Assembly: GCA_030704615.1 (NCBI GenBank)
Contig: CM060731.1
Coordinates: 1,612,001-1,676,000 of the forward strand
Direction: 5' to 3'
DNA length: 64,000 nucleotides
From: Takakia lepidozioides
Lineage: Eukaryota; Plantae; Bryophyta
The notes beneath the pieces were generated by a model. It was not told where the DNA came from and ran no database searches. It was given only the letters and a program-made list of their open reading frames with translations. Positions 25,031 to 57,969 of the stretch are shown piece after piece. Each line of letters starts with the position of its first letter. The first letter of the stretch is position 1. A program made the translations under genes and the position numbers.

Positions 25031-25324
25031 AGTAATGTGACGGCACGGTGCCGGCTTCTCCCCTTCAGCCGTCATCATCCGGACGGCCCCCCACTTTCTG
25101 ACTGCATACCGTTGGCAGTTATTGCGCAAAGACCAGGGCCGCATTCCGGAGACAAGGTTCATTAACACTCTGACTGTGTATTTTTGAGATAGTTGGCTCC
25201 TTGGATTTGGATCAGGCTTCGTCGCTCGGACAAATCGGCATCGCATTCATTCCCATCGCTGCACCCCCTTCTACCAGGGAGCTTCCCAGCACGCCATCCT
25301 GGCAGTCTTGTGTGCACATCTCCC

Positions 25325-36300: not shown

Positions 36301-38030
36301 CCATCCTCAAGTCCTGCATCACGGACTTCGCCAGCTCATCCTTCCGGTAAGCCTTCCGGATCTCCTTTGGAGCGCCGTCTCGCCCTTGTACACCACAAGA
36401 GCTGCTGCTTTCTACTTAAAGCATCGGCCACCACGTTGTCTCGTCCCGGTTTGTACTGGATATCCACGTCGAACACCGCCAAAGTATCTTGCCACCTAAG
36501 TTGTTCTGGGGACAACTTGGGCTGCGTGGCAAAATACTTCACCGTGACATTGTCCGTGAACACCTTCACTGGGTTGGAACCAACATAGTGGCGCCAAAGC
36601 TCAAGACAGTGCACCACCGCCTTCATCTCTTTTTTCGTGCGTCGGCCATCGTCGCTCCACTTCATTCAGTTTCTTACTTTTGTAAGCCACTGGACGTTCA
36701 TCTTGCATAAGTACACCCCCAATCGCGAAGTCCAACGCATCTGTATGAATCTCAAATGGACGATCGAACTCCGGGATTTTCAAGACTGGAGCTTCCGCCA
36801 TCCGCTGCTTCAATTCAGCAAAAGTTTGGCCACAAAATGTGTTCCATACCCAGACTTTGGATTTACACAGAAGGTCCGACAGCGGCCCCGCGATCTTGGC
36901 GAAATTTCTCACATACTTCCGGTAATAGGAGGCGAGTCCTAGGAAGGATCGCACTCCCGGGACCAAAGTCGGAGGCTCCCAGTCCAAGATCGCCCTCACC
37001 TTTCTGTCATCCATTTCAATCCCATCCTGTGTAATCACATGCCCCAAGAACTCCACTTTCGTGACCCCGAATTTGCATTTTGAAGCTTTGGCGTACAGCT
37101 TCCCTTCCGCAACTTTTGGAACACCCTTTTGAGGTGCTCCAGGTGTTCCTCCTTTGTTTTCGAGTACACCAAGATGTCGTCGATGTACACGATCACAAAG
37201 TCATCCAACCACTCCTGAAAAAGGCTGTTCATCAGCGTGCTAAAGGTCGCCGGTGCATTAGTGAGCCCAAAAGGCATCACCAAGAACTCATATGAACCAT
37301 ACCTTGTCCTGCACGCGGTCTTCTCATCATCTCCTTCCGCCACCCGAATTTGATGATAGCCGGAGCGCAAGTCGATCCGGCTGAAATACTTCGCTCCTGC
37401 CAACCGGTCGAAAAGGTCGTCGATCCTTGGCAAGGGTACCGTTTTTAATAGTCACCTTATTCAAAGCCCTGTAATCGACACACATCCGCAGCGTCCCATC
37501 CTCTTGTCTGCGAATAGCACCGGGCTCCGTAAGGTGACTTACTCGGCCGGATGTACCCCTTTGACATTAGATCCTTGAGCTGAGTCTTCAGCTCGACCAA
37601 CTCTCTGTGGCTCAACCGGTAGGGCGCCTTGGCAGGCGGTTCCGATCCCGGTATCACCTCAATCTTGTGGTCAACTCCTCTTCGCGGTGGCAAGCCGCTT
37701 GGTAAATCCTCCGGCATCACATCCTGGTATTTCTCCAAAATCCCCTTGATCCAATCTGGGCTCGGCTCCCCATCGCCTTCTCCTTTCACTTCTCTAATGT
37801 AAAGCAAAAACTGGGACTCGTGTGCCTCCTCCACGGCCCCTCCTTTGCTGACAGAAGGTTTATTTGCCCTCCCACGGATTTGGGCGTTTTCCGACACTCG
37901 TAAAACCTCGCCACCATTCCCACATGGCAGCGTGACTACTCTCTTGCGGCCCTCTATGACCGCTCCGGATTTGCTCAAAAAGGTCATCCCCAGACAAGTT
38001 CTTTCATGCTCGTTGGGTATAACCCGGTGA
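33305..38030 (-). mobile_element. 5'-truncated chromovirus (Ty3/gypsy with chromodomain): degenerate pol and probable ~1.6-kb 3' LTR
   Basis: [26 protein letters not shown] and YIDDIL. RNase H EIHTDA. Integrase WESVSMDF and GPF. Chromodomain EVEAILKSR...EYLVKWKGY..EASW at ~34970-35110. Purine tract GGGGGAGGAAA at ~34895-34905. The LTR limits (33305-34894) are inferred from TG..CA. Confidence 0.85.
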
Positions 38031-38102
38031 ACCCGACTGTTTCTGTGTTTTCAATATGCAAATCGTGCTGGCAATGGTTTGTCAGGATACCACTGTATCC
38101 CT

Positions 38103-40166
38103 TCAACTTATTGACTTGGACTCTTCCCCTGCATCTCTTGTTAATGGTTTGGCTGACATGGCGGTGTTGTTATCATATTCTTCTGTTATGACATAAGGTC
38201 CTTTCCATGGTGATTTAAGCTTAGAAGCCTTAATCTTCCCCTTCTTCTGCAACCACAGAACCAAATCACCCATCTTAAAAGTTTTCAGTTTACCTTCATC
38301 AAATTGATCCTTCCTCTTCATCTGAATTCTGGTCATGTTATCTGCTGCATCAGCACGTACTTCTTCCACATGATATAATTCATTCCTGACCTTAATTGAA
38401 TCTTCCAATTCCATTCTCCTTCCTCAATCAGTTCTCATGGTAGGTAACAAGAACTCCACTGGAAGTAAAGCTTCCATACCATAAACTAATTGGAATGGTG
38501 TATACTTAGTGGTGACTTTATATGAAGTCATGTATGACCACAAAACTGTCAACAACTTTGTATCCCAATCTGTTCTGTTTGCATTGATTATCTTAGCCAA
38601 GATAGTACATAGTATTTTGTTGGTAGCCTCTGCCTGCCCATTACCCTGTGGGTAATAAGTTGTACTCTTCCTATGCACAATCATGAACTCTTTAGTCAAT
38701 AGTTCAATGGTCTCATTAATGAAGTGACTTCCCTGGTCACTGATAAATTCCAGAGGACAGCCAAATCTTGTAAGTATGTTCTTATACATGAACCTTGCTG
38801 TGGACTTAGCTGAGTTGTCCCTCAGAGCTTTAGCTTCCACCCACTTTGTAGTATAATCAGTGGCTGTGATTATATACTTGTTCTGTGTATTTCTGGCTGG
38901 TGGGTTAATTGGTCCAACAAAGTCTAGTCCCCATTTCTGAAATGGTTCAGTAGGCATCGTAGGATGCAAAACCATCTTTCTAGATCTCTGCAATGGTCCT
39001 AGCCTCTGACACTCATCATAACTCTTGCAATACTTGTGTACATCCTTGAACAATGTAGGCCACCAGTAACCTGCAAGTAGTATCTTTCTACTGGTAGTCT
39101 CTTCTCCAAAATGACCTCCAGCCACTCCTTTATGAGTTTCCTCCAAAACTTTATTTACTTCATGGCGGTACAAGCATCGTTTAAGTACTCCATCAGGTCT
39201 TAGCTTATACATTCTGCCCCCTATCATAGTATAGGATAAAGCCTTTATAGCTATTCTCTTCCTCTGCTCCTTCCCATAACTAGGTGGGCACTGACCATGA
39301 GTAAGGTAGTATCTGATTGGCCACTACCAATCTAACCAATCATCTGCACTTCCCTGCACCTCCACTGCAAATAAACTCGCATCAGGTAGTTGGTCGTCTA
39401 CTCCTGTAGCGGGCTCTCCTGTTGATAGGCGTGACAAGTGATCTGCCACAAGATGTAAACGGCCAAGCTTGTAAACAACATCAAACTCAAACTCGTGCAA
39501 GATTATTAACCACCTTGCTATCCTTCCACTTATCAAAGGCTTGTTCACCAGATAAATCAGAGCCTGATGATCCACATAAAACATAAACTTCCTTCCCAAT
39601 AGGTAATGTCTGAATTTCTTGACTGCATAAATCATTGCCAATGCTTCTCTTTCAGTTGTGCTATAGTTCTTCTCAGCACTGTTCATCAACCTGCTAGCAT
39701 AATACACAGGTGAATCTATGTTTCCTGTAACATTTTGGGCTAATACTGCTCCCAATGCTTCTCCTGAGGCATCACTGTGAACATGAAACACTACATGCCA
39801 GTGGGGGTTTATCAGCACAGGTGTAGTTGTTACTGACAATGTAAGTTCCTCAAAAGCCTGTTGACATTCCGGTGTCCATGCAAACACTGCATCTTTCTTC
39901 AAAAGCTTGCTCAATGGTGCTGTTATCTGTGCATACCGTCTGACAAATCTTCTGTAATAACTGGTTTGTCCAAGGAATCTCCTTAGACTCTTAACATTTA
40001 CTGGTGGTGGAGAGGCTTTAATGGCCTCTGTCTTCCTGGGATCCACAAGAAGTCCCCTCTTACACACAATGTGTCCCGAAAATACCCCTGAATTCACACA
40101 GAAAGTACACTTCTCTGGATTCAGGCCCAGACCTCTCATCCTGCATCTGGCCAAACATAACTCCAA
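38103..40166 (-). pseudogene. Fragment of a second, non-chromovirus Ty3/gypsy pol (RT end, RNase H, integrase)
   Basis: VHSDAS, NYSTTEREALAM, LEETH.G..GGH, PFQKWGLDFVGP, SDQGSHF, YYPQGNGQAE and WKGPY. Confidence 0.9.
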
Positions 40167-40168
40167 TT

Positions 40169-41624
40169 GAGGTTTACTATTTCATGAGCAGAAACCATGA
40201 GCCATGAGCCATGAGCCGCATGAGCGGTGAGCCGAAGTCTAAAACACGCGGATTTCATGAGCGGACTCCTCCAAATTTGGAGATGCGGCAGATTAAACAA
40301 GTATTAAAATAATAATTTTATATTTGACCTTGCCGTTTTTGGAAGTTACGGATCCTGTAATGCGGCAAAGATATGTTGTCAGTAACAACTCCGCTCATGG
40401 GTTTTTAGATCCGCTCATGGAAATGAGTGACCGTGCAACGACAAATCCAGTATACCACGGCAAAAGGACGTCGCATACTGGCCTGTATAGAGTATTCCGC
40501 GGTTTTACATGCCTTAACATTGGAATGAAGCTGACCCTTTTGCCGCGACTGAACCAATAGAGTCTGCACAATTCTATCATCTTCCAGTATTCGGCGGGAA
40601 AGTTTTGCAAGTGAACTAGGAAATGCGGTGCCGCATTAGGGTTCGCACGTGCGAAATTTCTGGGCGGTTTGGTGTTGCTGACTGCCGCATCTACCAGTAC
40701 CTACGACGTTACTTGGAAATGCGGCGCCGCATTTCCTTGCCGGGGGTCGAATGAGGAAAGCAAAGTTTGGGAGAGCTGAAAAACAGGAACCCTCCAACAC
40801 ACAAAAATACATGCACTTGGAAACACGAGTGAATGACACCCGGGTTCCTCTTCAATCCTCCGCCTCAAAGGGCGAGTACGGACGTCCCCCTCTAGGTGTT
40901 CACCTCTGCGGTGCAAAGGCGTCCCTTTGATCTTCTCTCGCAATGCTGTCGCCCATTTCAGTGGATTCTTCGACCTCGAAGCTGTTCGCACCAACAATTC
41001 CTCCCTGTCCGGCCCAAAGCCCCATTGTTTCCCGCTCAGGAACTTGTAGTACGTGGCTTGCTGCATGATTGCTCTGTCGATGTCCTCTGTTGTGGCCGTC
41101 ACTACGTCCACCAGATGTGCGGCAGAAGACGCTCGCCAGGAGGAGTGCACTGATTCTGCCATATTCGTGTTCGGCATGTCTGTGTCGGAATCCAAGCACC
41201 GCTCCTACAAGGACACAGACAATGGTGAGGAACCAATGGAAAGGTCCGTAATAGAAAGACAATTGCACGAAAATGACAGGATCATACCTCCCGCATGTAC
41301 TGTCCGAACTGTCGATACCGGAAATGCCACCACCCCAACCAGCTGTGCATGGCTCCCAGATTGGTTGTCTCCACTGCACCTGACGTGTTCCACCAAGCCT
41401 CGATGATAGCAAACTTAACCTCTGCGTCATCAAATGTGGGTGCATCCTTCCACGCCGTACAAAGGACACGGTGTTCAGCCTGGAATGAGCTAGCAACAAA
41501 TTTGGTAGTGTAGTGGGATAGACTCTGTATCCAATGGAATCCACATGATCTCTCTTTCCCCTCCATTGGCACATTGGGGTCCTCACCGTACACACGCCGC
41601 ACCGCTGCCCAGTTGGCCTGAGCG
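40169..41624 (-). mobile_element. Truncated, internally deleted second copy of the MULE family
   Basis: TIR GAGGTTTACTATTTCATGAGC with CATGAGC repeats at 40169. Transposase RRVYGEDPNVPMEGKERSCGFHW and NTNMAESVHSSW are homologous to ~27000-27850. Cut by the LTR at 41625. Confidence 0.88.
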
Positions 41625-42660: not shown

Positions 42661-43189
42661 TGTCGTGCGCATACATATCGCTACACAACTACATCGCTGT
42701 CCAAACCACACCACACATATATGCACAATAAAGTAGTCTAGCACAATGATAACCAAACTAGATAAGGACACACACTCTCAACACAAGAAATATGAATCCC
42801 TCAACATCACTCTTTAAATAATAGTCGAGCCAGGGGCACCCCAAGCTATGGGGACTCCACCCCACAACAACCTACACTCCCATCATAAGCACACTCAGAT
42901 CTAAACGAATGCAGGAGCTCGGTCGCGCAGGCTCAACTCGAGAGAGATGAGCCGCGCGACTGCCGCTCTCGTGAAGATAAGACGGACCAGGTGTCAAACT
43001 AAACTTGACACCTGATTTAACACTTGACCTAAATCCAAGTGTTAAATACAAATAACTAGTTTTATTCTAGCTGTTTTCACACTGTGCTTATTTAACTTGA
43101 CAGCTGTCGTGCGCATACATATCGCTACACAACTACATCGCTGTCCAAACCACACCACACATATATGCACAATAAAGTAGTCTGCCACA
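42661..43189 (-). repeat. 3' terminal repeat block A-B-A
   Basis: 85-bp A (42661-42745), 356-bp B (42747-43102) and 85-bp A (43105-43189), each TG...CA. The B/A junction is the palindrome GACAGCTGTC. Confidence 0.92.
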
Positions 43190-43200
43190 ATCGCCCCCCT
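43190..43200 (-). promoter_or_regulatory. Polypurine tract
   Basis: Minus strand AGGGGGGCGAT lies immediately before TGTGGCAG, the start of repeat A. Confidence 0.7.
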
Positions 43201-43449
43201 AGCTGGTGGATAGGTCCCTCTACCTCCAGATAGCTACAAGATGTAATAGCCACAGCCGTACTAAGTCCTCTATCACTGTCCCTATTATACTCAAACTCTA
43301 TAGACCAAGAGGCCGGGTACAAGAGTAGCCCCATCGTTAGTCGCCGTCTTGCAATCTGTGAACTTGAGCCAAGATCTCGTGTGTTCAAGGTCTCCTAGTA
43401 GCTGGGCCTTGCGTTTCTTGTTAGCCTCCCATGGTTGTATCCACTCCCA

Positions 43450-46400
43450 CTATCCAATGCAATGTGGACATAACCAATCCCCATCCGGAACCATCTCAAG
43501 AGGTGGAGTCAAGCATCCCATATGCCAACCTCTAGAGCATCGATCACACACCAGCATGGTGGCTGCCCCTTTAGCAGACCCACACAACATGCACCTCAAA
43601 CCTGCAGATACCACTGCCAGGTTTGGGTCAATCCTGCCATCGACATTCGGAAGGTGACATGGCGCACAATTACGCACATGGTCCTTCCAAGTTATGCCAT
43701 CCCGACCCTCCAAGACCAAGACGCCTGAGGGCAAGACCTCTCGAACCCTCAAAATAACACGTCCTGCAGTCACATCCAGGGTCGTAGGAGCAGTCTGCTG
43801 CAGATAGACATAGTCACCAGGGTTGAATCTCCGAACCCCAGGACGATAGCCCCCACCACGTATGGTAGCATACCTCAACGTATCACGGTGTTGTGCAATG
43901 GCAAGGTTCTCGAAAGCCATGGGCATGACTCTCTTGAACAACTCTGCACGCTGCTCACATGCACGTGCCCACACGTCCGGATCGTCAAGGTTAAGAACTG
44001 TAGCAGCTTCTCTGCGAATGGATGTAGGCAAATCCGGCTCTCGGCCAAAGAGAAGAAAGTATGGTGAGAAGGAGGCAAGTGATGCTTGCTTGCTGAACCT
44101 GTAGCCCATGGCTAACCAGGGTAACTGAAGGTCCCAATCTCCTAGGTGTCCCTTCTGCAAGCCATACTTGCGCAAACCCCTCTTTACTGTCTGAACAACT
44201 CTCTCTGCCAAGCCATCGGCTCAGGATGATCCCGAGAAGTGGTGCGGTGGTCTATCAAGGCCTTGTCACACAAAGCCTGAAACTCCCCCAAGAACTCTCT
44301 CCCTTGGTCCGTGAGTACCTCAGCTGGAGCACCGAATCGGCTAAGCACACAATCCAGAATGCATACGCAGCTCCCTCACTAGCCTTATCAGGCAATGGAA
44401 CCAATTCAATCCACTTGGAGAAGTGCTCCACCATCACCAACACGTACTTGTTGTGGCGCATGGTCAGTGGCAACGGCCCTGCGAAGTCAAGACTCCACCT
44501 GTAGCCCAATCCCATGATCGGAAGAGGGTGCAATTGTGGAGTAGGGGCGTTGAATGAAGCACGCACCCTGTCACACACCATGCACCTAGCCACAAATTGT
44601 TGCACCTCTGTGTGCATACCACGCCACCAATACTGCCCCTGCAGTAGACTATGAGTGCGTCGCACCCCAAAATGCCCCAACTCCTCATGGGCATGCCGCA
44701 CTAACCGTGCCCGCTGTGTTGGGTGAGGCACAATCCTCACTCGACCATCCTCCCACACTCGGAGCAGGTGTGTCCCCTCCCACCTGAACCTCTTGGCTCG
44801 TTGTAGGATCCGATCCCTCTCCTTGGCAGTCATAGTGGCTGCCGTGTCTCCACTGCGGAGGTAGTCCAACACAACTGAATCCTCATGTATATCTTTGGCG
44901 CCACCCTGCTCATTGCTGGCCTCAGGGTCCTCAGACACTTGATCTACAGTCATCCCTGTTGTAGGTCCAACCTGGCCTTCCGCTGCCAAGATACACAGAA
45001 ATGCAGATGCATGCCATCCGGGCACCATCTCCTCGTCCGTCTCACCATGCCACCGAGCTCCAGTGTCATCCTGCTGGCTCGTGCATGGATTGCGACTCAA
45101 CCCATCTGCATTTCGATTGACCAAACCCGGTCGATGCACCACCTGAAAGTCATACTCTTGAAGGATGAGTGCCCACCGTGCAAGCTTCCCCGTAAGCTTG
45201 TCTGACTCCATCAACCACTTGAGTGGTTGGTGATCCGTGACAAGGGTGAAGAGATTGCCGTATAGATAGCACCTGAAGTGTGCCACGGCCCACACTGCAG
45301 CTAAGCATTCTCCCTCATATGAGCTATACTTAGACTCTGCAGCATTGTTCGAGCGGCTAGCATAAGCCACTACGAACTCTCTTCCCTCATCATCCACCTG
45401 TGTGAGCACCGCTCCAAGCCCCAGCATGCTCCAATCTGTATGCAGCTGAAAAGGACGCCCCCTGATAGGTCGTCTCAAGATGGGCGCCGAGGTCAACCTC
45501 GCCTTGAGCTCTTGAAAAGCTTGTTCTTGCTCATCTTCCCACTGCCACTCCTGGTCCACCTTGGTCAGCTTGGTTAGAGCCTTTGCAATGGCACTAAATC
45601 CCTTAACAAACCGTCTGTAATAGTTTGCTAACCCCATGAAAGCTCGAACTCGGCTCACATCCGTGGGGCGTGGAACCTGTGCAATGGACTCTACCTTAGT
45701 CTGCTGTACCCCCAATCCTCCAGGATATATCATGTGACCCAGATACTCAATCTGGTTGTGGAAAAACTTGCACTTGCCCGGATGTAACTTCAATCCGTGC
45801 GTCCTCAAGCGCTCAAATACCCCCTGAAGGTGTCTCTCATGCTCCTCCACCGTAGCACTAAAGATGATGATGTCATCTATGTAGCACCGAGCAAACTCCA
45901 CCCCTGCTAGAATCCTGTCCATGACTCTTTGAAACTCAGCGGGAGCGTTTTTAAGCCCAAATGGTAAGAACCGCCACTGGTATAGGCAATCCTTCCCGTG
46001 CTCATTGATCCCCCAGAATGCCGTCTTTTGCTTATCCGCCTCCTTGATCGGCAACTGGTGATATCCGGATCGTAAATCCAACGTGCTAAAGACCTTGGAA
46101 TGCCCAATGGCATCAAAGATCTCCTCTGGTGTTGGCATGGCATACCTATCGGACTTGGTCTGACGATTTACAGGCCGGTAATCACCGCACATACGTCTCT
46201 CCGTCCAATTGCCATAGACATCCTTCTTAGCTGGCATCACTGTGGCTGAAGCATACTCTCCACCAGAGAGCTCCACCAAACCTGCCTCCCAGAGATCTTG
46301 AGTCCTCATCTGAATCAAAGACCTCTCCATGTCACTGTATCTATAGGGTCTCCGAAAGATTGGCGTGTCAGTGGCCAACTCAATACGGATCTCTTGACCC

Positions 46401-46582
46401 TTCAGTGCTCCCAAGTCCTTCAAACTGAAGGCAAAGCAATTCCTGTAAGCCCTCAGGAACCGCCGTATACGTCGTCTCTCTCCTCCGGTGACAATGGGTC
46501 CAATGTCAGGCTCCCAATTGTCCTCCGTAACTGCAACCTTAAGTCCAGTGGGCTTAGAGGTAGAGGACGCGTCCCGTGGTTG
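43450..46582 (-). CDS. Pol: reverse transcriptase, RNase H, integrase and C-terminal PHD finger (frameshifted near 44220-44360)
   Basis: [47 protein letters not shown] and WSLDFAGP. 43450..44211 has AERVVQTVK and PHD CMLC...MLVCDRCSRGWHMGCLTPPL..VPDGDWLCPHC. Confidence 0.93.
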
Positions 46583-48208
46583 CTATGCTGCAACCTCTTG
46601 AGCAGTACCCCCTTCCTGCTCAGTCAATGACAAGGCCTCATCCTGCCCCATCATCTCATCATTGAGAACCTCCTCATCCATCACAGCTGCCTTCGCTGCC
46701 AACTCCCTCTGAACCTCGAGCACCTCCCACATGTGCCATGGATGTCTACACCTCGTGGTCCTCACCGGCTCGCCCCCACTCGCTGCCTGTACCGTCTCGG
46801 TAGGCAGAGAGACCATCAAGGGAAGTGCACTCCGCACTCTACGTTGCTCAGCCATAGCCAAGCTGACAATCCAGGTCAAGCAATTGAGATCCATTGCTTG
46901 CCCCAACACCTGACGACGTGATGCCTCAGAAAGAGAAGGCACCGCCGTGGTCCCAGTGGAAAACCCCATAGCCCGCTCTCGCTCGTCGGCATTAGGCTCC
47001 ACTAACTGCTGCAACTGAGCATCCCACAGGAGGCCAGGTCCACCATCCCGAAAAGCATGGGATCCTGGGAAGCTGAGCAGTGTAGGTAATGCTGCTCGTG
47101 GTTGACCCACCCTGTTGACCACTGCCAAAGGCGAACGGTCATCGTGTCTCACACGTTGAGACTGCCTTCCTGTGTCCAAAATGCCATCCACGGTGAGGTG
47201 TGCTGGCCGCTGCACCCCATCAAATGCACGCTTGAGCAGTGCGGGTGGCATCAAGTTAGTCCACCATAGTCGTGGACGATGAGCCCGTGACCCCACTGCA
47301 GCTGCATCCAGCAATACTGCTGACCCAAGCCACGACCGGACTTGATGCACACTGGCCATCACCCTGGCCCGAGAATCACCCATCAGTGGCACATTCTCCA
47401 AGATGTATGCCGGAGATACAGCCTGATGAAGCTGCAAGTGGCGCAAAATCCGCACCATCTCCCAAAACAGACCCGTCCTCGAGTCTCGCAATCCATTGCC
47501 ATGCCCGGCTGATGAATGCCCTTGGCAGGGCCAACCTGCCACTACCAGATCAATGGAGCCAACCCGCTCCAAATCCTGCGCCCCCAGCAACGCAATGTCT
47601 GCTGGCAAGGCCTGCTGATATCCACGAACTGCAGACACCGGCAACAACTCAGGGTGCTGCTGCACCATCTGAGCAACATGGCGCAGTGAGACGCGTCGTG
47701 CAGTCTCATCCCTCTCCACATACAGGTAACGTCGAACTCGTACACCTGCCTGCAGCACTGCAGCCAATCCAGTGCTGATCCCGCCAAATAAGTCCAGAAG
47801 GCATATGCCTTCATCCGGTCGCTGCCACACAAGAGGTGTGGTGTCCAATGGCGACAACTGAGGTGGCCCTGGTGCAATCACCGCACTCTCCTCCTCTCCT
47901 GACGGTACAAAAGCTTCTACCCAAGCTTGTTGCACCCGTCCATCAGCAGCGTGCTGCAAATCCTTGCTCGTACCCCACAACGGAGTGTGAGCAACCATGG
48001 CAGGCAACTCCGCCGTACCATGCATGTCATCCTGCTCTGCTGGAGGTGGCACATCCTCTGCATGGGCATTGCCTTCCAGCAACTCTCCAGGCCAACTAAC
48101 TGCAGCTGTGAAGGCGGCTAGTGTTGGCATCTTGCCCCGCTGGCAGCTGCAATACCCCCAATGAATGTCACAGGGAGCTGTGCACGGCGACCATCCCCTG
48201 ACTGCCAT
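46583..48208 (-). CDS. C5-cytosine DNA methyltransferase domain (DNMT3-like) inside the pol polyprotein
   Basis: Motif I LLDLFGGISTGL, II YVERD, IV DLVVAGWPCQG, VI ILENVP, VIII AHRPRLWWTN, IX ERERAMGF and X RRQVLGQAM. The terminal TAG is in frame with RT, 53 codons before ORF 44255..46423. Confidence 0.92.
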   Translation of the reverse strand: MAVRGWSPCTAPCDIHWGYCSCQRGKMPTLAAFTAAVSWPGELLEGNAHAEDVPPPAEQDDMHGTAELPAMVAHTPLWGTSKDLQHAADGRVQQAWVEAFVPSGEEESAVIAPGPPQLSPLDTTPLVWQRPDEGICLLDLFGGISTGLAAVLQAGVRVRRYLYVERDETARRVSLRHVAQMVQQHPELLPVSAVRGYQQALPADIALLGAQDLERVGSIDLVVAGWPCQGHSSAGHGNGLRDSRTGLFWEMVRILRHLQLHQAVSPAYILENVPLMGDSRARVMASVHQVRSWLGSAVLLDAAAVGSRAHRPRLWWTNLMPPALLKRAFDGVQRPAHLTVDGILDTGRQSQRVRHDDRSPLAVVNRVGQPRAALPTLLSFPGSHAFRDGGPGLLWDAQLQQLVEPNADERERAMGFSTGTTAVPSLSEASRRQVLGQAMDLNCLTWIVSLAMAEQRRVRSALPLMVSLPTETVQAASGGEPVRTTRCRHPWHMWEVLEVQRELAAKAAVMDEEVLNDEMMGQDEALSLTEQEGGTAQEVAA

Positions 48209-48867
48209 CCAGGCCTGTAGGATGCTGACTCCTCCCAGAAATCCAGGGTGAAGCCCATGGGGTATAACACTGCCCCACCAACGAGGACATCGTAAGAGAC
48301 CGCGTCTGTCACAATGGCCTTGGCTCGCATCACTGAGCCATCTACAGGATGATCCGGCTGCAGTCTAATAGCCAACTGATGCCGTGTCATGCCGCGAGCC
48401 TGCTCTGATCCTCCCAGAGATGTCTGTATCTGGAAAGGACAAGGCTCCATATCCGCCTCCATGAGGCCCAAACCTGCAATAGCAGCTCTGCCCAACATCA
48501 GTGGCTGAGCTCCTGAGTCCAACAAGACCCGCAGTGGCCGGTACTTCTTGCCTGCCGGTCCACTCAAAGTGAAAATGCCTCCCTGGTTGTCTAACAAGAC
48601 AACTCCAGGTGTCACCATGGCGCGCTCAAAGGCTGGCCTAGCTGGCAGCTCCGTCAATCTGGCAGCTGCAGCTTGCCAGGGCGCTGCCGTGGCAGTCTTG
48701 ACCCTCAAATCCGAGGATCCCTCTGCCACTACACCTTCCACTAACTCCGCAGAAGATGAAGTGACCTCTCCACTCTCGCAGAGTGTTGCTGCTAGTCTGA
48801 ACACTGCAGCTGGTCTCACTCCCGGCGTCGCAATCATGGTTGCCGAGAACAGTGGGGCTTGACACAC
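48118..48867 (-). CDS. Retroviral-type aspartic protease
   Basis: RVLLDSGAQPLMLG and YDVLVGG, between gag and the DNMT, offset by frameshifts. Confidence 0.85.
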   Translation of the reverse strand: MCQAPLFSATMIATPGVRPAAVFRLAATLCESGEVTSSSAELVEGVVAEGSSDLRVKTATAAPWQAAAARLTELPARPAFERAMVTPGVVLLDNQGGIFTLSGPAGKKYRPLRVLLDSGAQPLMLGRAAIAGLGLMEADMEPCPFQIQTSLGGSEQARGMTRHQLAIRLQPDHPVDGSVMRAKAIVTDAVSYDVLVGGAVLYPMGFTLDFWEESASYRPGWQSGDGRRAQLPVTFIGGIAAASGARCQH

Positions 48868-50756
48868 AGAGGTGGCTGCCCCAATAACACACCGGCTGCA
48901 CTAGCCTTGGTAGCAGGTGTCAGTGCTGCACGTGTAGCTCTCCCCAATGGCATAGTAACCTCCGCCTCGGTAACAGTCGGGCGAGAACTAGGTGCCATGG
49001 ATGGCGTTGACACTGTCTCCGCCAAGGTGAATGACTGAGGCAGCCTTGCCTGACGGCTTGCCTCCCCACGTTGTGGATCCAACTCCACCTCTGCACCTCG
49101 TGGCTCAGGAACTCGTGTTGCTCCTCGAGTCACGGCTGCAGCAGACTCCACCTGCTCTAGTGGTAGTGCTGCTCCGCACATGAATCCCATGCCTCCCATA
49201 TCTCCTCCCTCAGGAGCAGGAGGTGGGCCATCCCGCCTGGGAGCCGGTACCGCCTGAGCTATAGCCATGGCAGCGAGCCTCTGCTCTAGCTGCTGAAGCC
49301 GATTGGCCATGCCTTGGTCAACACCCTGACCTCCGCGTCCTTGGCCATGTGGAGCTTGCCCTTGGCCTGCACCTCGTGCCCGACCACCTCGTCCTCTTTG
49401 GGCTGGTCCACCTCGCCCCCGGCCACCATTGTTCCCTTGGAACTGGCCTGGGCGCAACTCAGGATGCAAGTCATAACACTGGGCATCTCCATGCCCATAC
49501 TTGCCACAATGCCCACACTGCAACTGTGCAGGCTGTGCTTGTGCCGGCCTTCTGCCACTCTCTGGGCAATCTCTCTTGACATGGGGTCCTCCACATGTCC
49601 AACATATCACCCCTGGTTGCTGTTGGCCTGCAAAAGATGCCACGGGCCTCTGCACCTGAGGTCCCCTGTAAGCTCCATGGAACTTGGGCTGGGCAACCTT
49701 GCCCCCCTGACCACGCTGTTGGGCAGTCCCTTGTGCTTGTGGGCTGACAGCTGTGCCCCGTACAGGCATGTCCTTGCCAAATCCAATTGTAACAACTCGC
49801 TCCTCCACCATGTTGAGCTCAATCCGCTCAGCCAGCAGAAACACATCTGCTAATGTGGGTTGGGCTGCTTGTAACAGGGTTGCATCTCGCACCCTTCTCT
49901 TGAGCTCCTTGTCCAGAATTCCATACCAAAACTGGATTGCCTGAGCTTCAGTAACCCCTTGGGTCACACTTATCAAGCGCCTCATACGAGTGTACGCCTC
50001 TCGCAGGCTCTCACTGGGTTTGCGCTGGAAGTCTTGCAAACTTCGCAGCTTCTCTGTCCGTACACCTTGGTAGTTCCTCCGCAACTCCTGGAAGAACTCC
50101 ACCACCGGGTTGAATCTAGGCACATGTGTTGTAGTCGTGGCAGGAGTAGTAGCACCTTTTGAACTGGTACCACCTGCAGAAGTACCAGCACTACTTGCTC
50201 CACTACTAGTGCTGGCAGTGGGAGCTATTGGTACTGATGCAGCTACTGGTCGCGTCGTGCCTCGAGTAATGGAGACGTAGTCAGGTGACCAATACATCCT
50301 CCACTCCTCAATCTCTGCTTCATGTCCTCGCCTGAACTCGTGGTAATCGTCCATAGGCGGGCCTTCCAAATGCTGGAACAGTCCCTTCCACGCCATGAAT
50401 GGGGTGAATAGCTGTGGATTGCGCATCTGCTGCAAATCACACCAGCTGTCGAACTCCTGGATAAAGTCATCCAACTCGATTGTGCCCACAGCTCCAGAGT
50501 ACCTACGAGGCCCCTTGGTAGCTCCATACATCTCCTCCATGTCGTCCCACAACAATGGCGAATGAAAGTGCACACCTGTTGATGAAGCCTCCGAGTCTGT
50601 GTCTGACTCTACAGTAGTTGAGGGTGGCGGTGAAGGTGGTCTGAACCGAATACCTCGTCTTGTGAACCCACTCTCACTGTCACTGCTTGTAGCCGTACTC
50701 CCCTCAAAACCCTTGGGTAACTCCGTAATGACACTCACAATGTGCACCTCCTCCAC
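48834..50756 (-). CDS. Gag with two zinc knuckles
   Basis: FQRKPSESLREAYTRM (gag major-homology-like), CWTCGGPHVKRDC and CGHCGKYGHGDAQC. Confidence 0.88.
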   Translation of the reverse strand: MEEVHIVSVITELPKGFEGSTATSSDSESGFTRRGIRFRPPSPPPSTTVESDTDSEASSTGVHFHSPLLWDDMEEMYGATKGPRRYSGAVGTIELDDFIQEFDSWCDLQQMRNPQLFTPFMAWKGLFQHLEGPPMDDYHEFRRGHEAEIEEWRMYWSPDYVSITRGTTRPVAASVPIAPTASTSSGASSAGTSAGGTSSKGATTPATTTTHVPRFNPVVEFFQELRRNYQGVRTEKLRSLQDFQRKPSESLREAYTRMRRLISVTQGVTEAQAIQFWYGILDKELKRRVRDATLLQAAQPTLADVFLLAERIELNMVEERVVTIGFGKDMPVRGTAVSPQAQGTAQQRGQGGKVAQPKFHGAYRGPQVQRPVASFAGQQQPGVICWTCGGPHVKRDCPESGRRPAQAQPAQLQCGHCGKYGHGDAQCYDLHPELRPGQFQGNNGGRGRGGPAQRGRGGRARGAGQGQAPHGQGRGGQGVDQGMANRLQQLEQRLAAMAIAQAVPAPRRDGPPPAPEGGDMGGMGFMCGAALPLEQVESAAAVTRGATRVPEPRGAEVELDPQRGEASRQARLPQSFTLAETVSTPSMAPSSRPTVTEAEVTMPLGRATRAALTPATKASAAGVLLGQPPLCVKPHCSRQP

Positions 50757-51275
50757 GTGACACTATAAGGCTCTAGTACTAATCTAATAGTGACACGGGT
50801 GGGCACCTGTTGCAGTCTAAGGGTCATATCCCAATGGCTCAGGGCACCTGCACCTGCATCCACCGCAAGAACTCCTATGGTTGGCTGGTCATCAACCCAG
50901 CCTCACCATAGAAGAAACACTGGTGGTCTTGCTGGTCATCACTCCAGCCTCACCACCGACAGCATACTCTAGGATTGACCGGTGATCAAATCCGGCCTAA
51001 TCCCTATGAAAGCAAGCGCCCACACAAAACCAACATGGCGCACAGTCAAGCATGCAGGTGTTGGGGGGGATCCAAACACAAGAAATCAAAACATCAACAC
51101 CCCCACACCAAAATCCAGCAGCAACGCTGATCCTGCAGAATATCCCAGCCCAAAACCCCGGACTGACTGGCCTCCACCAAGAGAGGCTTTGGCAACTACA
51201 AGTACAAGGTAATGAAAATAGTACAGAGATGGAGGGGAAGAATAGAAGCCCGCCCAAGCAAGATCTAATCCTGAT

Positions 51276-52025
51276 CTATGCTATCAACTTCCAGACTTCT
51301 CTCAAAGTGCCTCGCTCTGCTTGATGGTAAGGTGTAGGAGGTATATCTATGTCCAGAAACCTGCCACTAACCTTGTCCCAAGCTACAGTAGCTCGCTCTA
51401 ACCAACCCTCCTCCTCTTTCTGCCAGGTAGAGACAAAGCAACACTCTGCTATCTCCCGCTCACTGAACACTAAAGAAAACAAAGGTAGGGTCTGATAGTC
51501 TCTCAACTCGAAAGCTTTGAGACGGTTGCGGGTGTCTTCATTGCGAATGACTGCATCGCCTTCAAACAGAACAAACTTGTCCTCGCTAATGAACCCCCGC
51601 TCGTGGTTGCCTTGTGCAGAGCGTGTCCGACTGCAACACTGTCTAATTGCACAAACTTGTGCAGCTCCTGCTCCTCTGCTCCAGTACACCACGGCCTTGT
51701 GGCTGAACACCTTGGTCCCCGGGGCTGTCTTTGGCTGTGTTCCAAGCCTAGCTTTCACCCACTTTGGTATTTCACCTACAGCTGCAGAACTGCTGGCTCC
51801 AACAGAGTTCTGACTGTCCAAGGCGATATTGAGGCCCTCAATGCCAACTACAGCAGTCTGTTGTCTACTGCTAATGCCTGACTCCCAGTATGCAATCAAC
51901 TCGTCCAACTGTTCTCCACTCAAATCAGTCTGAGTTCCTTGGGAAACATAAATCGTGTCCCCTTGTGTGCACAGACTAAGAGAAGAGACCTGCCCTTCAA
52001 TTACGTCCTCATTTCCCCCAGCCAT
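51276..52025 (-). CDS. Element-borne accessory ORF of unknown function (249 aa) upstream of gag
   Basis: Open 249-codon ATG ORF in element sense orientation, with a globular-looking C-terminal half. No family recognised. Confidence 0.45.
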   Translation of the reverse strand: MAGGNEDVIEGQVSSLSLCTQGDTIYVSQGTQTDLSGEQLDELIAYWESGISSRQQTAVVGIEGLNIALDSQNSVGASSSAAVGEIPKWVKARLGTQPKTAPGTKVFSHKAVVYWSRGAGAAQVCAIRQCCSRTRSAQGNHERGFISEDKFVLFEGDAVIRNEDTRNRLKAFELRDYQTLPLFSLVFSEREIAECCFVSTWQKEEEGWLERATVAWDKVSGRFLDIDIPPTPYHQAERGTLREVWKLIA

Positions 52026-52727
52026 GCATGGAGTACATCCACCAATTTGTCTCTCATATAGACCAGCACAGGTTCTAGAGACAGGATTGTGGATCTTTCA
52101 TGGCACACTCACACTCTAAAAATTCCATAGATTTTTAGCAGAGTCCCCAAAACAGAAACCAGGTTTAGATAGGTAGATTTCCCCTTTCTGCAGCTATCCC
52201 CCCAAAAACTGGGTCAAACAGAGTCCATTTGACAAAGATATGATGAATTTGGCTCCAAATCATTCAAATTAGATTAAAAAGGGGTTTTTTTTTTTTTTTT
52301 TTTAAAGGTTTTCAAGTTTTAAAAATTCAAAGTTACACCCAAAATATCTGGTAACTGGTTCCCGGTTCCCTAAGTTCTATATGGCATCCTAGGTTCCCTG
52401 GCCACGTGCCTGCTGTTCCCCTCCATTTCATTTGAGTTCAACAGCTCACCATGCTTTGGAATCCCAACCGTCTTCTACCACAAACCGTGGTGACGATGGA
52501 GTTCGTGAAGCGATCCTTCCCAGTGAACCCTCGAGAGACGAGTCCCCTGTGCACTTGATATACACTCTCTTAATAGAGATCAAAATCAGCAAGGAGACAC
52601 CATTGACGACACCCAGAGATCAGAGACAAGTACTTGCGCAGTTCGGAGGCCACAGCATCCCCTCTGGACACTGAGCGGGGAATAGCTGCTACACAGCAGC
52701 TCAGTCTATCGTCAGCTCCTATACCTA

Positions 52728-53144
52728 CTAGCTTCCTGCCCCTGCCATAATCAAAGAGACAAGTGACACAACACCAGCTGGAAACACCTTTCCTGAATTT
52801 TTGTATCGAGAGCCCATCACAAACAAGAGAAGCCCTGAAACAGCAACACCGATAGAGGACGCAAGGACAGGGTTCGAGGGCAGGTTCAGATAGACATAAT
52901 AGAGGATCAGAGCTGACCCTCCCCCTGACAGCAATGACTTGCTGCTCCCAGATTTTGCAAATCCGATCACTCCTCCCAGACCAACAAGGACTGCATACGC
53001 CAAGGTCAGCCTCTGCGACATAGACAGCTTCATCTTTCCGTCACCACTTCCCTCTTCCTGTCCTCCCTCACCACCGTTCCTGTTGCCTCCATTGCCCGAC
53101 ACTTGGGTTACATGCTCAGCCAGACCTTCAAAAACCTGGCCCAA
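52728..53144 (-). pseudogene. FAX4: Intronless copy of plastid fatty acid export protein (TMEM14 family, FAX4-like)
   Basis: Gly-rich linker then LSMSQRLTLAYAVLVGLGGVIGFAKSGSSKSLLSGG..LPSNPVLASSIG..MGSRYKNSGKVFPAGVVSLVSLIM. No introns. The N-terminus has decayed and the C-terminus appears truncated. Confidence 0.85.
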
Positions 53145-53984
53145 AATTCACTGGCTGCTCGGACACTGACATGACCAAACCTCTTTAACTCCAATCAGCC
53201 TGCTGCTGAGTTACGATCTCATCACCAAGCAAAATCTATCCCAATGCCCAGTTGAGCTGCCAGTCTCGCATTCACTTTCCCCACCAAGGCAGCTGCAATA
53301 CACTGACTGTCTTAGCTCCCTCCATGACAACCTCCCGCATTTGGGCAAGTTCAGCTTCACGGACCTCCCAGCGACTTAGCAGCTGCTTCAGGTCATGGTC
53401 CTAGCTAGCGCATGCTGGGCTGCAACCAGTTGCAGATCCTTATCGTGTAGAAACCCCTTCACTGCTCTCTTTCCATCTCCTGATGCCATGCTCCATCCTC
53501 CAGCCACTTCACTTGTTTCAGGCACCCAGGTCCCTATGGGCAGGTCACATGCTCCTGTGCCAGCCAGAACAGTGACATTCGACCCCTTCGTCTTCAGGAA
53601 CAAGCTGGTAGCTTCCTTGATGTCATCAGTTTCCTGGACACTTAAACGGCAGTATGGTCGCCACCTCTGATTGAGGCAGTAGTGGTGACGAAAGGAGAAG
53701 AGAACACAGGGAAAGAGCGAGGAAAAATAAGGGCGGAGAACTGCTCATGTCAAAAGGTCAAAGCCAGAGAGGTCGAAACATTGTGCGAAGGGGGACCGTG
53801 TTTCTGCTGCCCTCTCCCACTTCAGCGCAACATTCAGCGTCCAGAGAGTGAAGTCCCTCAAAATTTAGAGAGTGAACCCACCGGCAACAGGAGTGCTCTC
53901 AAGCGGACATTGAGCGCCCTCCACTGACTCAGTTGAGTGTGCAAACCTTTCTGCTCATGCAGTTCCAGCAGTCAATACTCACTC

Positions 53985-54476
53985 CTAGTGATGATGATGC
54001 TCATGCCCTAGAAGACCACCCTCTCCTATCACCTTCAACTGAAAGACTTGGCTGCAGACTGAGCATTCATACTATTTGTCCTTCTCCAGCTTGAACCATG
54101 TCACATCATGCTCATCCTCACCAACACCTCCTGAGCACCCAACTATCCGCTCATCATAGTGTGACTCCACAATTGCAGGGGCATCCTTGGTTCCAAAGGG
54201 ACCACGAGGCGGATCCAGATCAAAGCGCTTCCCACCCGAGCGCTCCGCTTCCAACTCCTCCAGCTCAACTCCTGTTCCAATTCCAAAATCGCCCGAGCTG
54301 CCTCCTGCACTTGCCAAATCACGACTACGATGCAACCACCGCGCATATGAGAGACCCCGATGTTCTGATTACTCCGCTTGCAGTTGCGGGTTACACAGCA
54401 ATGTCGGTGGAGGCACACATGGTACACGCCTGGATGCAACCAACCGTGAGAGCCTGCATCCAGCCGTCCTCAACAT
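53985..54476 (-). pseudogene. COX5B: Intronless full-length copy of cytochrome c oxidase subunit 5b with two premature stops
   Basis: 164-codon frame: MLRTAGCRLSRL (presequence-like)...GPFGTKDAPAIVESHYDERIVGCSGG.GEDEHDVTWFKL..*YECSVCSQVFQL..HHHH. Stops at 54369 and 54072. Confidence 0.88.
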
Positions 54477-54777
54477 AGCGCCCCACTCCCTCTGGGCCTT
54501 GCCATCACACCACCAGCTGCCATCGACATATCCTCCGCAGCCGGCGACGCCCTTACAGTGGAAGCACACCTCGCCAATGCCAACAGAAATATGGGCAGAC
54601 CACCATTACTCTCTCTTCTACCACACCATTGCGACTGGAGATGTGAGGTGAACTCAAGCTAGAGCCGTTCTATGCTCCTTGCTTGAGCTGCGTACAAGAC
54701 CATGACCATCTATATTATAATAGTGCTTAAAAAAACAAAAACATCATATCTAGCTTAGCACTGGAAAACTAGATAGT

Positions 54778-54793
54778 GCTCATCTCTCTCGAG
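54778..54793 (-). promoter_or_regulatory. Probable self-priming primer-binding site
   Basis: Abuts the 5' repeat. 54778-54794 is the perfect reverse complement of 54984-55000 inside the repeat. There is no TGG tRNA-type PBS. Confidence 0.7.
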
Positions 54794-55150
54794 TGATAAC
54801 CAAACTAGATAAGGACACACACTCTCAACACAAGAAATATGCAATCCCTCAACATCACTCTTTAAGATAATAGTCGAGCCAGGGGCACCCCAAGCTATGG
54901 GGACTCCACCCCACAACAACCTACACTCCCATCATAAGCACACTCAGATCTGAAGAATGCAGGAGCTCGGTCGCGCAGGCTCAACTCGAGAGAGATGAGC
55001 TGCGCGACTGCCGCTCTCGTGAAGATAAGACGGACCAGGTGTCAAACTAAACTTGACACCTGATTTAACACTTGACCTAAATCCAAGTGTTAAATACAAA
55101 TAACTAGTTTTATGCTAGCTGTTTTCACACTGTGCTTATTTAACTTGACA
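54794..55150 (-). repeat. 5' terminal repeat B
   Basis: TGATAACC...AACTTGACA, a near-identical copy of 42747-43102. Confidence 0.93.
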
Positions 55151-56379
55151 TGATTCTGGTTTCAAATCCTGCTACCTTGTCAAGTGTGGTATGATCTTCC
55201 CCTCCTTCCCTTGGGTTGTGTCCCATGAGCCTTGTGCTTTGAAGCCTCATGACGAGGTTACTTGGAAAGAGGTTATTTTCTCTTCTCATTATACTTAAGG
55301 GGCCTGATTTGTGAGAGGTAGCTCCCCGGTAAAATAAAATACAACCAAAAATGTTGAGAACATGCGAATACATGATATTCCACTTCTTATAATAGAATAA
55401 GAATCTTGGACTCTAAAGAGTCTAATTTAGCAATGAACTCATATTTTTTGTGGCTTTGTCTTGGTTTGAGTCAGAATCTAGCTACATCCATGACAAACTC
55501 TGTGAAAAAAAAACTAAAAGGTGGACGCGTTGCCGAAGCATGTGTAACTTATGGTGTCACTTGACCCAGAAGGGCTATTGCCTTCCGGTAGGAAGGTGGA
55601 TACCTTTGTAACAACCATCATGGTATACTCTGTAATTGGTGTAGTGGCTTTAAAAATTTACGATCATGTGTGGGAAAATAAAATAAAATGTGGAGGCGCT
55701 ACTGAAACAAGTGTAATTATGGTGTCACTACTGCCTTCTAGTGGGAAGGTGGACACCTTTATGACATCCAACATGTGGTTTGAACCTGTAGGACTTGAGT
55801 CTTGGTGTAGGTAGTGCCCACATACTACCATCAACCCATTGCAACTTTAATTATGAGAGTAAACAACATACATGGGAGGGCCGTGGTCTCGCCCACCCTC
55901 CCTCCAGACTCCTCGCCCACGAAGCTCTTCAATAGGCCGAATTTGCTGCGCATTCATCTCCTTGCGCTTCAACTATCCTCATCCTCACACAACAGAGAAC
56001 ACCTACCACCTCCCACCCACTTCTACACCTCCCTACTGGGGTCAAGCTATTAGCCACAATTGACCCAAACCAGCTTAAGTATACTCATACCCCTCCTTTT
56101 CCCAAATACCTCTAGCAGAAGGAACCTACCCTAACCCTCATCCTGCATGTCCAAAACCCCTATCATGTTGACATACCTACACATTTCTTTCGCGAAGTAA
56201 AACATCTACTAACCATAACACAAAATAAATGCCATCATCCACCATCCATCTACCCCTCATTGCACAAGCACATCTACCCCCCTCCCTCGAATTAAAACAA
56301 ATAAAGCCTGGATTGGGGCACTGCCGCGCCCCCCCCAGGCCACATTAGCAAAACCCCCCCCCCAATCCCCTCGTTATAT

Positions 56380-57006
56380 ATGCAAACCCACACCCTCAAG
56401 TACCCTCCTGCGAACTCTCACTACACTGATGGATCCCTTACTAAATCTAATGCAGGCTACGGTATCTACCATGCAGGAACAGGGAGAGGGGTTGCCCTCA
56501 GTCTCCCTGGCCCTGCAACCATTCACAGGGCCGAGCTTATGGTCATCTGCGACGCTCTCCTCCTACTTGACACCTTCCCCCCTCCATACTTCATCTTCAC
56601 CAACAACCTTATCTCCTTATTCCTCATCCGCAACCACATCGCTCACCCCTCCTCTCACCACCATCATCCTAACCGTAACCTTATTTCAGCCATTGTAAAT
56701 GCTGCCGTCTCTAAAAAGCACCCAACCCACCTTCTCAAAATATGCTCGCACACTGACATTCAAGGGAATGAGGAGGCCGACCTCCTTGCTCAACGTGGTG
56801 CCACCAAACCCAAAGCTAACCCCACGGACGACCCTATTCACATCGCCCACACCCACCCTTTCTGGTTTATACACCCAATTCCGGACCCTACGGCACCACA
56901 ACCCATACGCAATCTCTTGGTTTTGGGGGCAAATATGCCTTTTTTGAGGCAAATTAGGAAGCAGAATATCTTCGCTCCACGGTGCTGGCACATTCTGCAT
57001 TCCTAA
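56380..57006 (+). pseudogene. RNase H domain remnant of a non-LTR retrotransposon
   Basis: YTDGS, IHRAEL..I..AL, IFTN and KICSH.DIQGNEEADLLA. Confidence 0.75.
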
Positions 57007-57330: not shown

Positions 57331-57778
57331 CTTATCTTGTTTCTTGTTTTCTTTAAAAGAAAAAGATAAAAACACATATGATTAATGCTCAATCATTTGA
57401 TTATCTCTATTTTTTTAAAAACCCTAAATAATCAAGAAAATAAAAATAAAATTGACTCAGGCATAAAAAAAACCTCATTGTTAATTATAGTGTCAGTAAA
57501 ATTTAATAGGCCATGGCCTTGAATGAATGAAGGAAAAAACAAAGCAGCCTTGTTTTTCTTTTCTTTTTTGGGAAAAGGGGACTGAAGCCCTTTAAGAATT
57601 TTATTTCAGCAAAGGCGAGGAAAAAATAACCTGGCAACGGCCTCTCATTGAGGAGCAGGTCATTAACAAGACTTACCCAGGGTTGACAGTAAAACTTCAG
57701 TATAACACTCTTCTTCTGGTTCCTGCTCAACAACCTCTCTGTATCAATACCATTTATGGCCATAATCTATAGCAGCTT

Positions 57779-57852
57779 GCTCCCGTAGCTCAGTTGGTTA
57801 GAGCATCGGTCTTATGAGCCGAAGGTCGCGGGTTCGAACCCCGCCGGGAGCA
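57779..57852 (+). tRNA. tRNA-Ile (anticodon UAU), intronless
   Basis: Acceptor stem GCTCCCG/CGGGAGC, D arm TAGCTCAGTTGGTTAGAGC, anticodon loop CT-TAT-GA and T loop GGTTCGAACC. T-run about 35 bp downstream. Confidence 0.95.
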
Positions 57853-57969
57853 TATCTCCCGTATTCAAGTGAAACGGCGCTGATTCTTTTATTGTATACT
57901 ACTTTACAAGTTCTAATAGTCCAAGTTTCCCTTTTTTATTTTCTTAATTCTATCTAGAAAAACGGAAAC

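Follow-up and report, generated by a model that had tools for sequence, protein, structure and literature searches.

A Ty3/gypsy element of Takakia lepidozioides with a DNMT3-like methyltransferase on the Gag side of a conserved, likely leaky stop codon

The stretch of DNA considered here, hereafter the window, comprises 64,000 nucleotides of Takakia lepidozioides (Bryophyta; NCBI GenBank assembly GCA_030704615.1, contig CM060731.1, positions 1,612,001 to 1,676,000 of the forward strand), and contains on its minus strand, at 42661-55150, a Ty3/gypsy element in which a DNMT3-like C5-methyltransferase sits between the protease and the reverse transcriptase (RT). The order of domains is gag, aspartic protease (PR), DNMT, RT, RNase H (RH), integrase (IN) and a PHD finger (Table 1), and the Ty3/gypsy assignment is made on these protein domains only. 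An earlier note, made from the letters of the window, had placed a methyltransferase between protease and RT; the order holds, but in the window copy the DNMT frame is continuous with neither protease nor gag. Gag, protease and DNMT occupy three different frames, with breaks near 48.88 kb and 48.14 kb, and the integrase is broken twice, near 44.36 kb and 44.22 kb; because of these four frame breaks the window copy is dead. At all four places single-base indels set the other copies in sequencing runs of this organism apart, and relatives read through these places, with gag, PR and DNMT forming one open reading frame (ORF). DNMT and RT of the window share a frame that is interrupted by a single TAG, as the earlier note had stated, and it is this stop that carries most of the argument below.

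The stop-to-stop frame that holds the DNMT (48364-46583, minus strand) matches PF00145 with an E-value of 6.8e-13, and motifs I, IV, VI, VIII, IX and X are intact and unpermuted, which bears out the catalytic domain with PCQ, ENV, RxR and motifs I and X described at the outset. The proposed resemblance to DNMT3 also stands. The ranking of PDB sequences places DNMT3A first (E 6e-11), followed by DNMT3B/C and then by DRM2 and HhaI, and an AlphaFold2 model built from a 20-sequence alignment (pLDDT 84, pTM 0.87) retrieved DNMT3A/B at every listed top match in Foldseek (E 1e-17, TM 0.65). By both sequence and fold, DNMT3 is a closer match to the window DNMT than DRM, DNMT1/2 or Dcm. Among metagenome loci (L001-L080, the 80 retained of 311 confirmed), alignment showed the catalytic Cys to be kept in 57/57, and the Cys, the ENV Glu and the RxR arginines are retained in all architecture groups of the family (Cys 27/27, 30/30 and 79/79). 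The ratio of non-synonymous to synonymous substitution (dN/dS) of the DNMT is 0.08-0.10 between the window and nine moss-type copies, with dS of 2.2-2.7, 0.12 between L020 and L029 and 0.10 between L043 and L048. Such ratios, of about 0.09, point to purifying selection and answer the question of neutral evolution raised in the earlier note. There is a good probability that the enzyme is catalytically active, and by analogy with SymbioDIRS-Dnmt3 it would be expected to prefer CG.

A search of longer proteins scored 7,988 candidates and gave 74 matches, with Calypogeia fissa (75%) at the head together with many gene models of Marchantia polymorpha (60-74% across most of the domain), and with further DNMT matches in Sphagnum fallax, Closterium and metagenome proteins; a 50%-representative protein library gave 265 matches at 1e-30. 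Nearly all metagenome loci of adequate length share the order gag-DNMT-RT-RH-IN. The DNMT tree groups the window domain with proteins of Marchantia, Calypogeia and Sphagnum at 100% support, and the RT tree is congruent for this clade, while phage C5-MTases form a separate outgroup clade and were the only matches in IMG/VR (27-50% over partial length). These trees, made with quick IQ-TREE and FastTree runs, omitted most near-identical loci (11/57 domains entered the DNMT tree and 5 the RT tree) and contained no host DNMT3 or DRM sequence. No protein named K. nitens was among the matches of the searches that carried names. In run X1, where contig depth is not to be equated with copy number, depth was 10,000-39,000 over the element body and 13,000-26,000 over the DNMT, which is covered by many contigs like the remainder of the element. 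With relatives at 60-75% identity, this coverage speaks against a one-off capture, and the presence of the system in land plants, proposed in the earlier note, is confirmed by the Marchantia, Calypogeia and Sphagnum fallax relatives. DNMT carriage is family-wide, and the element belongs to an abundant bryophyte family common to liverworts and peat mosses.

A sister clade (L042-L080, 36-43% identity, from the same metagenome set) has WECQ in place of WPCQ, a PHD finger after the integrase, and the same A-B-A-B ends with a 4-bp target-site duplication (L048). An initial impression that this clade was catalytically dead was rejected, as the first regular expression had missed motifs I and IV, and alignment shows ELFGG and WECQ with the Cys kept. 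A second, larger group was also observed (P0043-P0066, P0083-P0216 and P0312), in which the DNMT lies between RNase H and integrase; the full RT-RH-DNMT-IN-PHD order was found in 39/216 proteins. Its named members point to chlorophytes, viz. P0056 (labelled Chrzof1) and P0312 from Monoraphidium neglectum, the latter assigned without a check of domain order, and the group implies relocation or a second capture of the DNMT and a range beyond streptophytes. In Closterium (Zygnematophyceae), proteins P0069, P0096, P0097, P0284, P0286 and P0287 have DNMT fused to gag or RT, which places the element also among the algae that are sister to land plants.

The TAG between DNMT and RT had been explained in the earlier note as plausibly derived from CAG, which implies a single PR-DNMT-RT-IN Pol polyprotein. 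Decay of CAG, TGG or CGA to a stop is indeed common, with 644 stops inside domains of these copies, and a Pol fusion does hold in the sister clade and in the published KnitGypsy-Dnmt3. However, moss-type junctions have TAG or TAA in 31/32 cases (22 TAG, 9 TAA), TAC in one and CAG in none, L020 has the stop although it is otherwise stop-free, and the same stop-CAR-YY context recurs in three diverged clades despite saturated synonymous sites. For the window clade the comparison of junctions refutes decay from CAG, and the single Pol polyprotein keeps next to no probability.

Among close-clade loci in which DNMT is followed by RT, the window included (n=33), 29 have TAR-CAR-YY as the first RT-frame stop, at an offset of -6 to +1; L036 keeps the stop with a decayed context and the other three are broken. 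At this site the window reads TAG CAA CCA, the moss type TAR CAA CCC, L020 and L021 TAG CAG TTA, and L029 and L059 TAG CAA TCA; TAG CAA CCA is tentatively assigned to L033 as well, whose contig ends before RT. UAG-CAR-YYA is thereby exact in the window, L020, L021, L029 and L059. The second codon past the stop varies between Pro, Leu and Ser, yet YY is kept, and within the 30-nt flanks of the stop the clades agree at only 7-18/30 positions. As controls, CARYYA follows 0/644 decay stops and 6/2526 TAR sites in the window. The clearest layout is that of L020, where a 1369-aa Gag-PR-DNMT ORF and a 1047-aa RT-RH-IN-PHD ORF are joined at one stop; the first Met of the second ORF is at codon 117 in L020 and 85 in the window, whereas RT homology starts earlier, at codon 79-80. 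In the nearest complete proteins Gag, PR and DNMT form a single ORF of 1250-1450 aa, which terminates where the window TAG lies, those of Marchantia and Calypogeia finishing 124-126 aa past ERERAMG, compared to 133 in the window. The linker that ends the first ORF measures 78 codons in the window, 72 in the moss type and 85-109 in L020, L021, L029 and L059. No variant was found at 46577-46606 among the 40 best-supported entries in four runs (38 further ones lay beyond these), and no conserved RNA structure was detected 3' of the stop (z -0.6 to -1.3 at five junctions out of six and -3.3 at L059).

UAG-CAR-YYA is the readthrough signal of tobacco mosaic virus (TMV), which is sufficient alone and works with both UAG and UAA (PMC2754532, PMC2194720); this type of context gave 6-10% readthrough in stable Arabidopsis lines (PMC2754532), and in-frame stops are described at the pol/env junction of SIRE1 and the gag/pol junction of murine leukaemia virus (MuLV; PMC2194720). 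From the conserved context, the stop of the window clade is very likely leaky and readthrough is strongly indicated. The DNMT is then likely to be made at the Gag level, with RT and IN reached by readthrough, and the fusion with RT and IN implied in the earlier note gives way, the conserved stop and its context placing DNMT on the Gag side. Pol might alternatively be reached by splicing out of the stop, from an internal promoter or by reinitiation, any of which would leave the DNMT on the Gag side. In the debated case of Tca2 from Candida, the region of the in-frame stop showed promoter activity in reporters (PMC2194720), an ATG is present at codon 3 past the stop in moss-type copies, and several Marchantia and Sphagnum gene models do join DNMT to RT (P0006, P0008, P0011, P0014, P0016 and P0040). 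These models, though, resume RT at a different residue each time (55, 22, 8, 444, 109 and 17), as expected of predictor artefacts, the window, L020 and L059 have no early ATG past the stop, and neither splicing nor reinitiation would require the continuity of frame or the conservation of CAR-YY, so that this route to Pol is judged quite unlikely.

With a leaky stop, most ribosomes would halt after the DNMT to yield Gag-PR-DNMT, and a few percent would continue into RT-RH-IN-PHD. Retroelements need a Gag:Pol ratio of roughly 20:1 (PMC2194720), and readthrough of a few percent would supply about this. The DNMT would likely equal the capsid protein in abundance and greatly exceed the copying enzymes, and its position on the Gag side would therefore entail packaging at capsid stoichiometry: it would enter the particle on each Gag subunit, be freed by the protease, and meet newly made double-stranded complementary DNA (cDNA) ahead of integration, so that new copies would probably carry methylation by the time they insert. 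Such copies may be taken for host chromatin or be silenced already on insertion.

The PHD finger (43453-43600, minus strand) has as nearest structures CHD4, KDM5A/B PHD1, PHF21A, ATXR5, UHRF1 and AIRE, which we take to be readers of unmodified H3 tails, and no PHD of the ING/BPTF type appeared among the 60 structure matches shown. It is predicted to read unmethylated H3K4, which would steer integration away from H3K4me3 promoters. The PHD is also pertinent to a different destination for the enzyme, in which readthrough does take place, yet the plentiful DNMT works in trans, on chromatin of the host, on genomic copies of the element (as self-restraint or camouflage) or at the insertion site, and not on cDNA. 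Synthesis at the Gag level would yield enzyme well in excess of the needs of one 10-kb cDNA, the PHD resembles readers of unmodified H3 (their specificity being presumed), and in mosses DNMT3 is the host de novo and CHH enzyme (PMC10952607). Against action in trans, no targeting domain was found on the DNMT itself, and the PHD lies on the integrase side of the stop. Linkage to Gag packages a protein into the particle interior, as is established for retroelements, and this favours the interior as the site of action. Action in trans is considered unlikely, and cDNA is the best guess for the substrate, held with slight preference.

Taken together, the explanation preferred here is that a dead copy represents a family with a Gag-PR-DNMT first ORF, a likely leaky stop and an RT-RH-IN-PHD second ORF, whose DNMT, at capsid level, would likely methylate cDNA in the particle; as a whole it is regarded as fairly probable. 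Several observations weigh against it. The moss-type context, CAACCC, is one base off the consensus, and the Marchantia and Calypogeia junctions are known by protein ends only, without the stop context at DNA level. As the 32 moss-type loci are close copies, some being the same insertion in several samples, the independent support amounts to three clades and not 30. The sister clade is open between DNMT and RT in 14/28 loci with the CAR context in none, and P0082 and P0260 are single-ORF relatives, so not every lineage requires a DNMT at the Gag level. For selection, dS is near saturation in the window comparisons, and among moss-type copies dN/dS is 0.36-0.73, similar to that of their RT; decay stops are present in 50/57 domains, these being dead copies. 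The observed/expected CpG ratio of the element, 0.46-0.58, is not below that of another gypsy piece in the window (0.38), and CpG depletion was discarded as uninformative for self-methylation. Finally, the isolated Klebsormidium nitens domain of KnitGypsy-Dnmt3 gave no methylation in yeast, which its authors regarded as inconclusive (PMC5890265). This inactivity, like the RNA methylation proposed for SymbioLINE-Dnmt, would suit a DNMT kept for a non-catalytic role, in nucleic-acid binding or particle structure, or for methylating the RNA genome; the catalytic residues kept in all architecture groups and the DNMT3-type fold argue otherwise and make this very improbable.

A wider proposal is much more speculative, viz. 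an ancient green-lineage gypsy clade with a Gag-PR-DNMT3 capsid, in which the leaky stop would load hundreds of methyltransferases per particle, delivering either cDNA methylated beforehand or a burst of DNMT to nucleosomes that the PHD selects through H3K4me0, a transposon version of the DNMT3-plus-ADD logic. Its ends would be rebuilt from the internal junction despite a DDE integrase, and it might contribute to the methylomes of Marchantia and Sphagnum; in this full form it is doubtful.

The ends of the element are unusual. Comparison of the window with itself revealed two repeat pairs in the order A-coding-polypurine tract-B-A-B, and the A...B-A-B layout is also present in five metagenome loci (L032, L041, L046, L048 and L053); the ends TGTCA and CACGACA recur in metagenome loci of A-B-A-B layout. 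The window element has TG...CA ends, a polypurine tract and a short, probable target-site duplication, but these split repeats in place of two identical long terminal repeats (LTRs) at both ends. Perfect 4-bp target-site duplications were found for L032, L041 and L048, none could be resolved for L046, L053 and L060, and the window has three matches of four. Because of these ends and 4-bp duplications, integration by a DDE integrase is indicated, and the internal B/A junction would serve as template for rebuilding both ends of the element and their 2-nt overhangs. The junction pattern CAYGACA-nn-TRTCA occurs at 16 places in 14/81 sequences, the window and both clades included, four of the 16 having the form CATGACA-TG and being possibly unrelated. 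No TGG-type primer-binding site for a tRNA was seen by eye after A1 in seven sequences. That repeat A might be a solo element with no relation to the rest was ruled out, as relatives share A...B-A-B with target-site duplications outside A1 and B2.

Table 1. Features of the Takakia element; positions are those of the window
Feature	Position	Strand	Evidence or remark
5' flank, probable 4-bp target-site duplication	55151..55154	-	ATCA against ACCA at the 3' flank, 3/4 match
Repeat A1, element 5' end, starts TGTCA	54794..55150	-	98.3% identity to A2 across 358 nt; TGTCA end also in relatives
Putative captured host cDNA pieces (TMEM14/FAX, COX5B) in 5' leader, copy-specific	52443..54647	-	Pfam and low depth
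gag, two zinc-knuckle-like Cys/His motifs	48834..50540	-	Retrotrans_gag E 0.002; 57% to P0003 from residue 1
gag start, the Met at which Marchantia relatives begin	within 48834..50540	-	
Aspartic protease, DSG at 48519-48511	48118..48900	-	Pfam 0.009 (weak)
DNMT3-like C5 cytosine methyltransferase domain with intact motifs I-X	46820..47842	-	Pfam, PDB, Foldseek, motif reading
Motif I, FGG	47788-47780	-	
Motif IV, PCQ	catalytic Cys at 47527	-	
Motif VI, ENV	47398-47390	-	
Motif VIII, AHRPR	Arg at 47278 and 47272	-	
Motif IX, ERERAMGF	46984-46961	-	
Motif X, RRQVLGQAM	46918-46892	-	
Acidic linker, poorly conserved, C-terminal end of ORF1	46586..46819	-	78 codons in window
Conserved stop and readthrough-type context, TAG CAA CCA (UAG-CAR-YYA)	46577..46585	-	stop at 46585-46583
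RT (YIDD 45883-45872), RNase H, integrase zinc finger, start of integrase core	44255..46582	-	Pfam; nearest structure Ty3 RT, E 3e-72
Integrase C-terminal part and PHD finger	43450..44220	-	PF00628 E 5e-11; intact IN-PHD in L020, L029
Polypurine tract	43192..43200	-	AGGGGGGCG immediately ahead of B1; same in relatives
Repeat B1	43105..43191	-	97.7% to B2 across 87 nt
Internal B1/A2 junction, CACGACA-GC-TGTCA	43096..43111	-	3' end of the element, then 2 nt, then its 5' end
Repeat A2	42747..43102	-	self-comparison
Repeat B2, element 3' end, finishes CACGACA	42661..42747	-	self-comparison; end shared with relatives

The 5' leader of the window copy contains an insert that looks like mRNA capture by this copy. 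One piece, at 52728-53147, matches Pfam Tmemb_14 (8e-18) and is intronless, its nearest relative among named matches being from Sphagnum compactum (75%), which together with the DNMT clade makes a bryophyte the likely host; the other, COX5B at 54072-54368 (Pfam 5e-13), is likewise intronless and contains a stop. The depth of the insert in run X1 was 12-30, and contigs of run X8, which by guess is RNA, match the captured pieces at about 98-99% and then continue into other sequence. In the high-depth part of the leader, a 273-codon ORF (51276-52097, minus strand) with no match in Pfam or in L001-L080 may be an extra ORF specific to the family.

Elsewhere in the window, a tandem array of 125-129-nt units from a PPR-like gene lies at 10790-13300 (PPR Pfam only E 0.037), a CACTA transposase (Transposase_21, DUF4218) at 14241-16764 on the minus strand, and a 95-nt tandem repeat and GC-rich satellites, in inverted arrangement, at 19116-20080 and 23580-25066. 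Fragments of other gypsy elements without DNMT occupy 36601-40181 on the minus strand; on the plus strand are an RNase H fragment (56305-57006) and a tRNA-Ile(TAT) call (57778-57853).

It has been an open question since 2018 why retrotransposons retain an enzyme by which they are ordinarily silenced, and the sole streptophyte case was in an alga without genetics. Marchantia polymorpha has many Gag-PR-DNMT gene models, e.g. Mp4g09160, Mp5g06330 and MpVg00370, and therefore activity, stop context and substrate can be tested in a model plant. Studies of de novo methylation in bryophytes may be overlooking dozens of unannotated DNMT3-like genes. The part that a specialist would not expect is the leaky stop putting DNMT on the capsid side, which would shift its stoichiometry from the Pol level to the Gag level, and the sister clade with its Pol-fused enzyme offers a natural comparison. 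The split ends may explain why the family is absent from plant surveys based on LTR finders; the accessible text of one such survey, PMC6317226, contains neither 'methyltransferase' nor 'PHD'. In the literature covered, which lay outside subscription papers, no placement of Gypsy-DNMT3 in land plants and no readthrough for it were found. Only the 2018 paper (PMC5890265) and a 2026 preprint name Gypsy-DNMT3 among the literature found, and in the portions available PMC12344493 and the 2026 preprint speak of 'streptophytes' without naming land plants, their supplementary trees falling outside this comparison.

The closest known system is KnitGypsy-Dnmt3 of Klebsormidium nitens, in which DNMT shares one ORF with RT and RNase H and the repeats are DIRS-like, A-coding-B-A-B (PMC5890265). 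Compared by published description and not by sequence, the two share an unpermuted DNMT3-like domain inside a Gypsy coding region, the repeat layout and purifying selection. They differ in host, an alga versus a land plant, and in that the window clade has a conserved stop that sets Gag-PR-DNMT apart from RT, the same-ORF arrangement being met in the sister clade and in P0082 and P0260. The available text on KnitGypsy-Dnmt3 does not mention a PHD or readthrough, and 'frameshift' occurs zero times in the review file (PMC5890265). SymbioDIRS-Dnmt3 (PMC5890265) is a further retrotransposon-borne DNA methyltransferase, but DIRS elements use a tyrosine recombinase, whereas the window element has an integrase of the DDE type (rve and H2C2) and a probable 4-bp target-site duplication, and does not belong with them. 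As in type I readthrough of the TMV kind, an in-frame stop with a six-base 3' context lies between two ORFs and would set a high ratio of the first to the second; in the present case the stop stands, within a Ty3/gypsy element, between Gag-PR-DNMT and RT and, unlike that of MuLV, has no conserved 3' structure. Host DNMT3 (animal DNMT3A/B and moss DNMT3, PMC6453930) is alike in fold and motif order and provides the best structural and sequence matches, but identity to DNMT3A is about 21%, and the window DNMT is intronless, lies within a polyprotein and is without PWWP/ADD or the plant accessory domain. Lastly, the EpiLTR/DAM-LTR elements (10.64898/2026.05.21.726589) are also retrotransposons bearing methyltransferases, to which EpiLTRs add a chromatin reader; the EpiLTR DNMTs are related to DNMT4 and accompanied by chromodomains, whereas the window element combines a DNMT3-like domain with a PHD finger.

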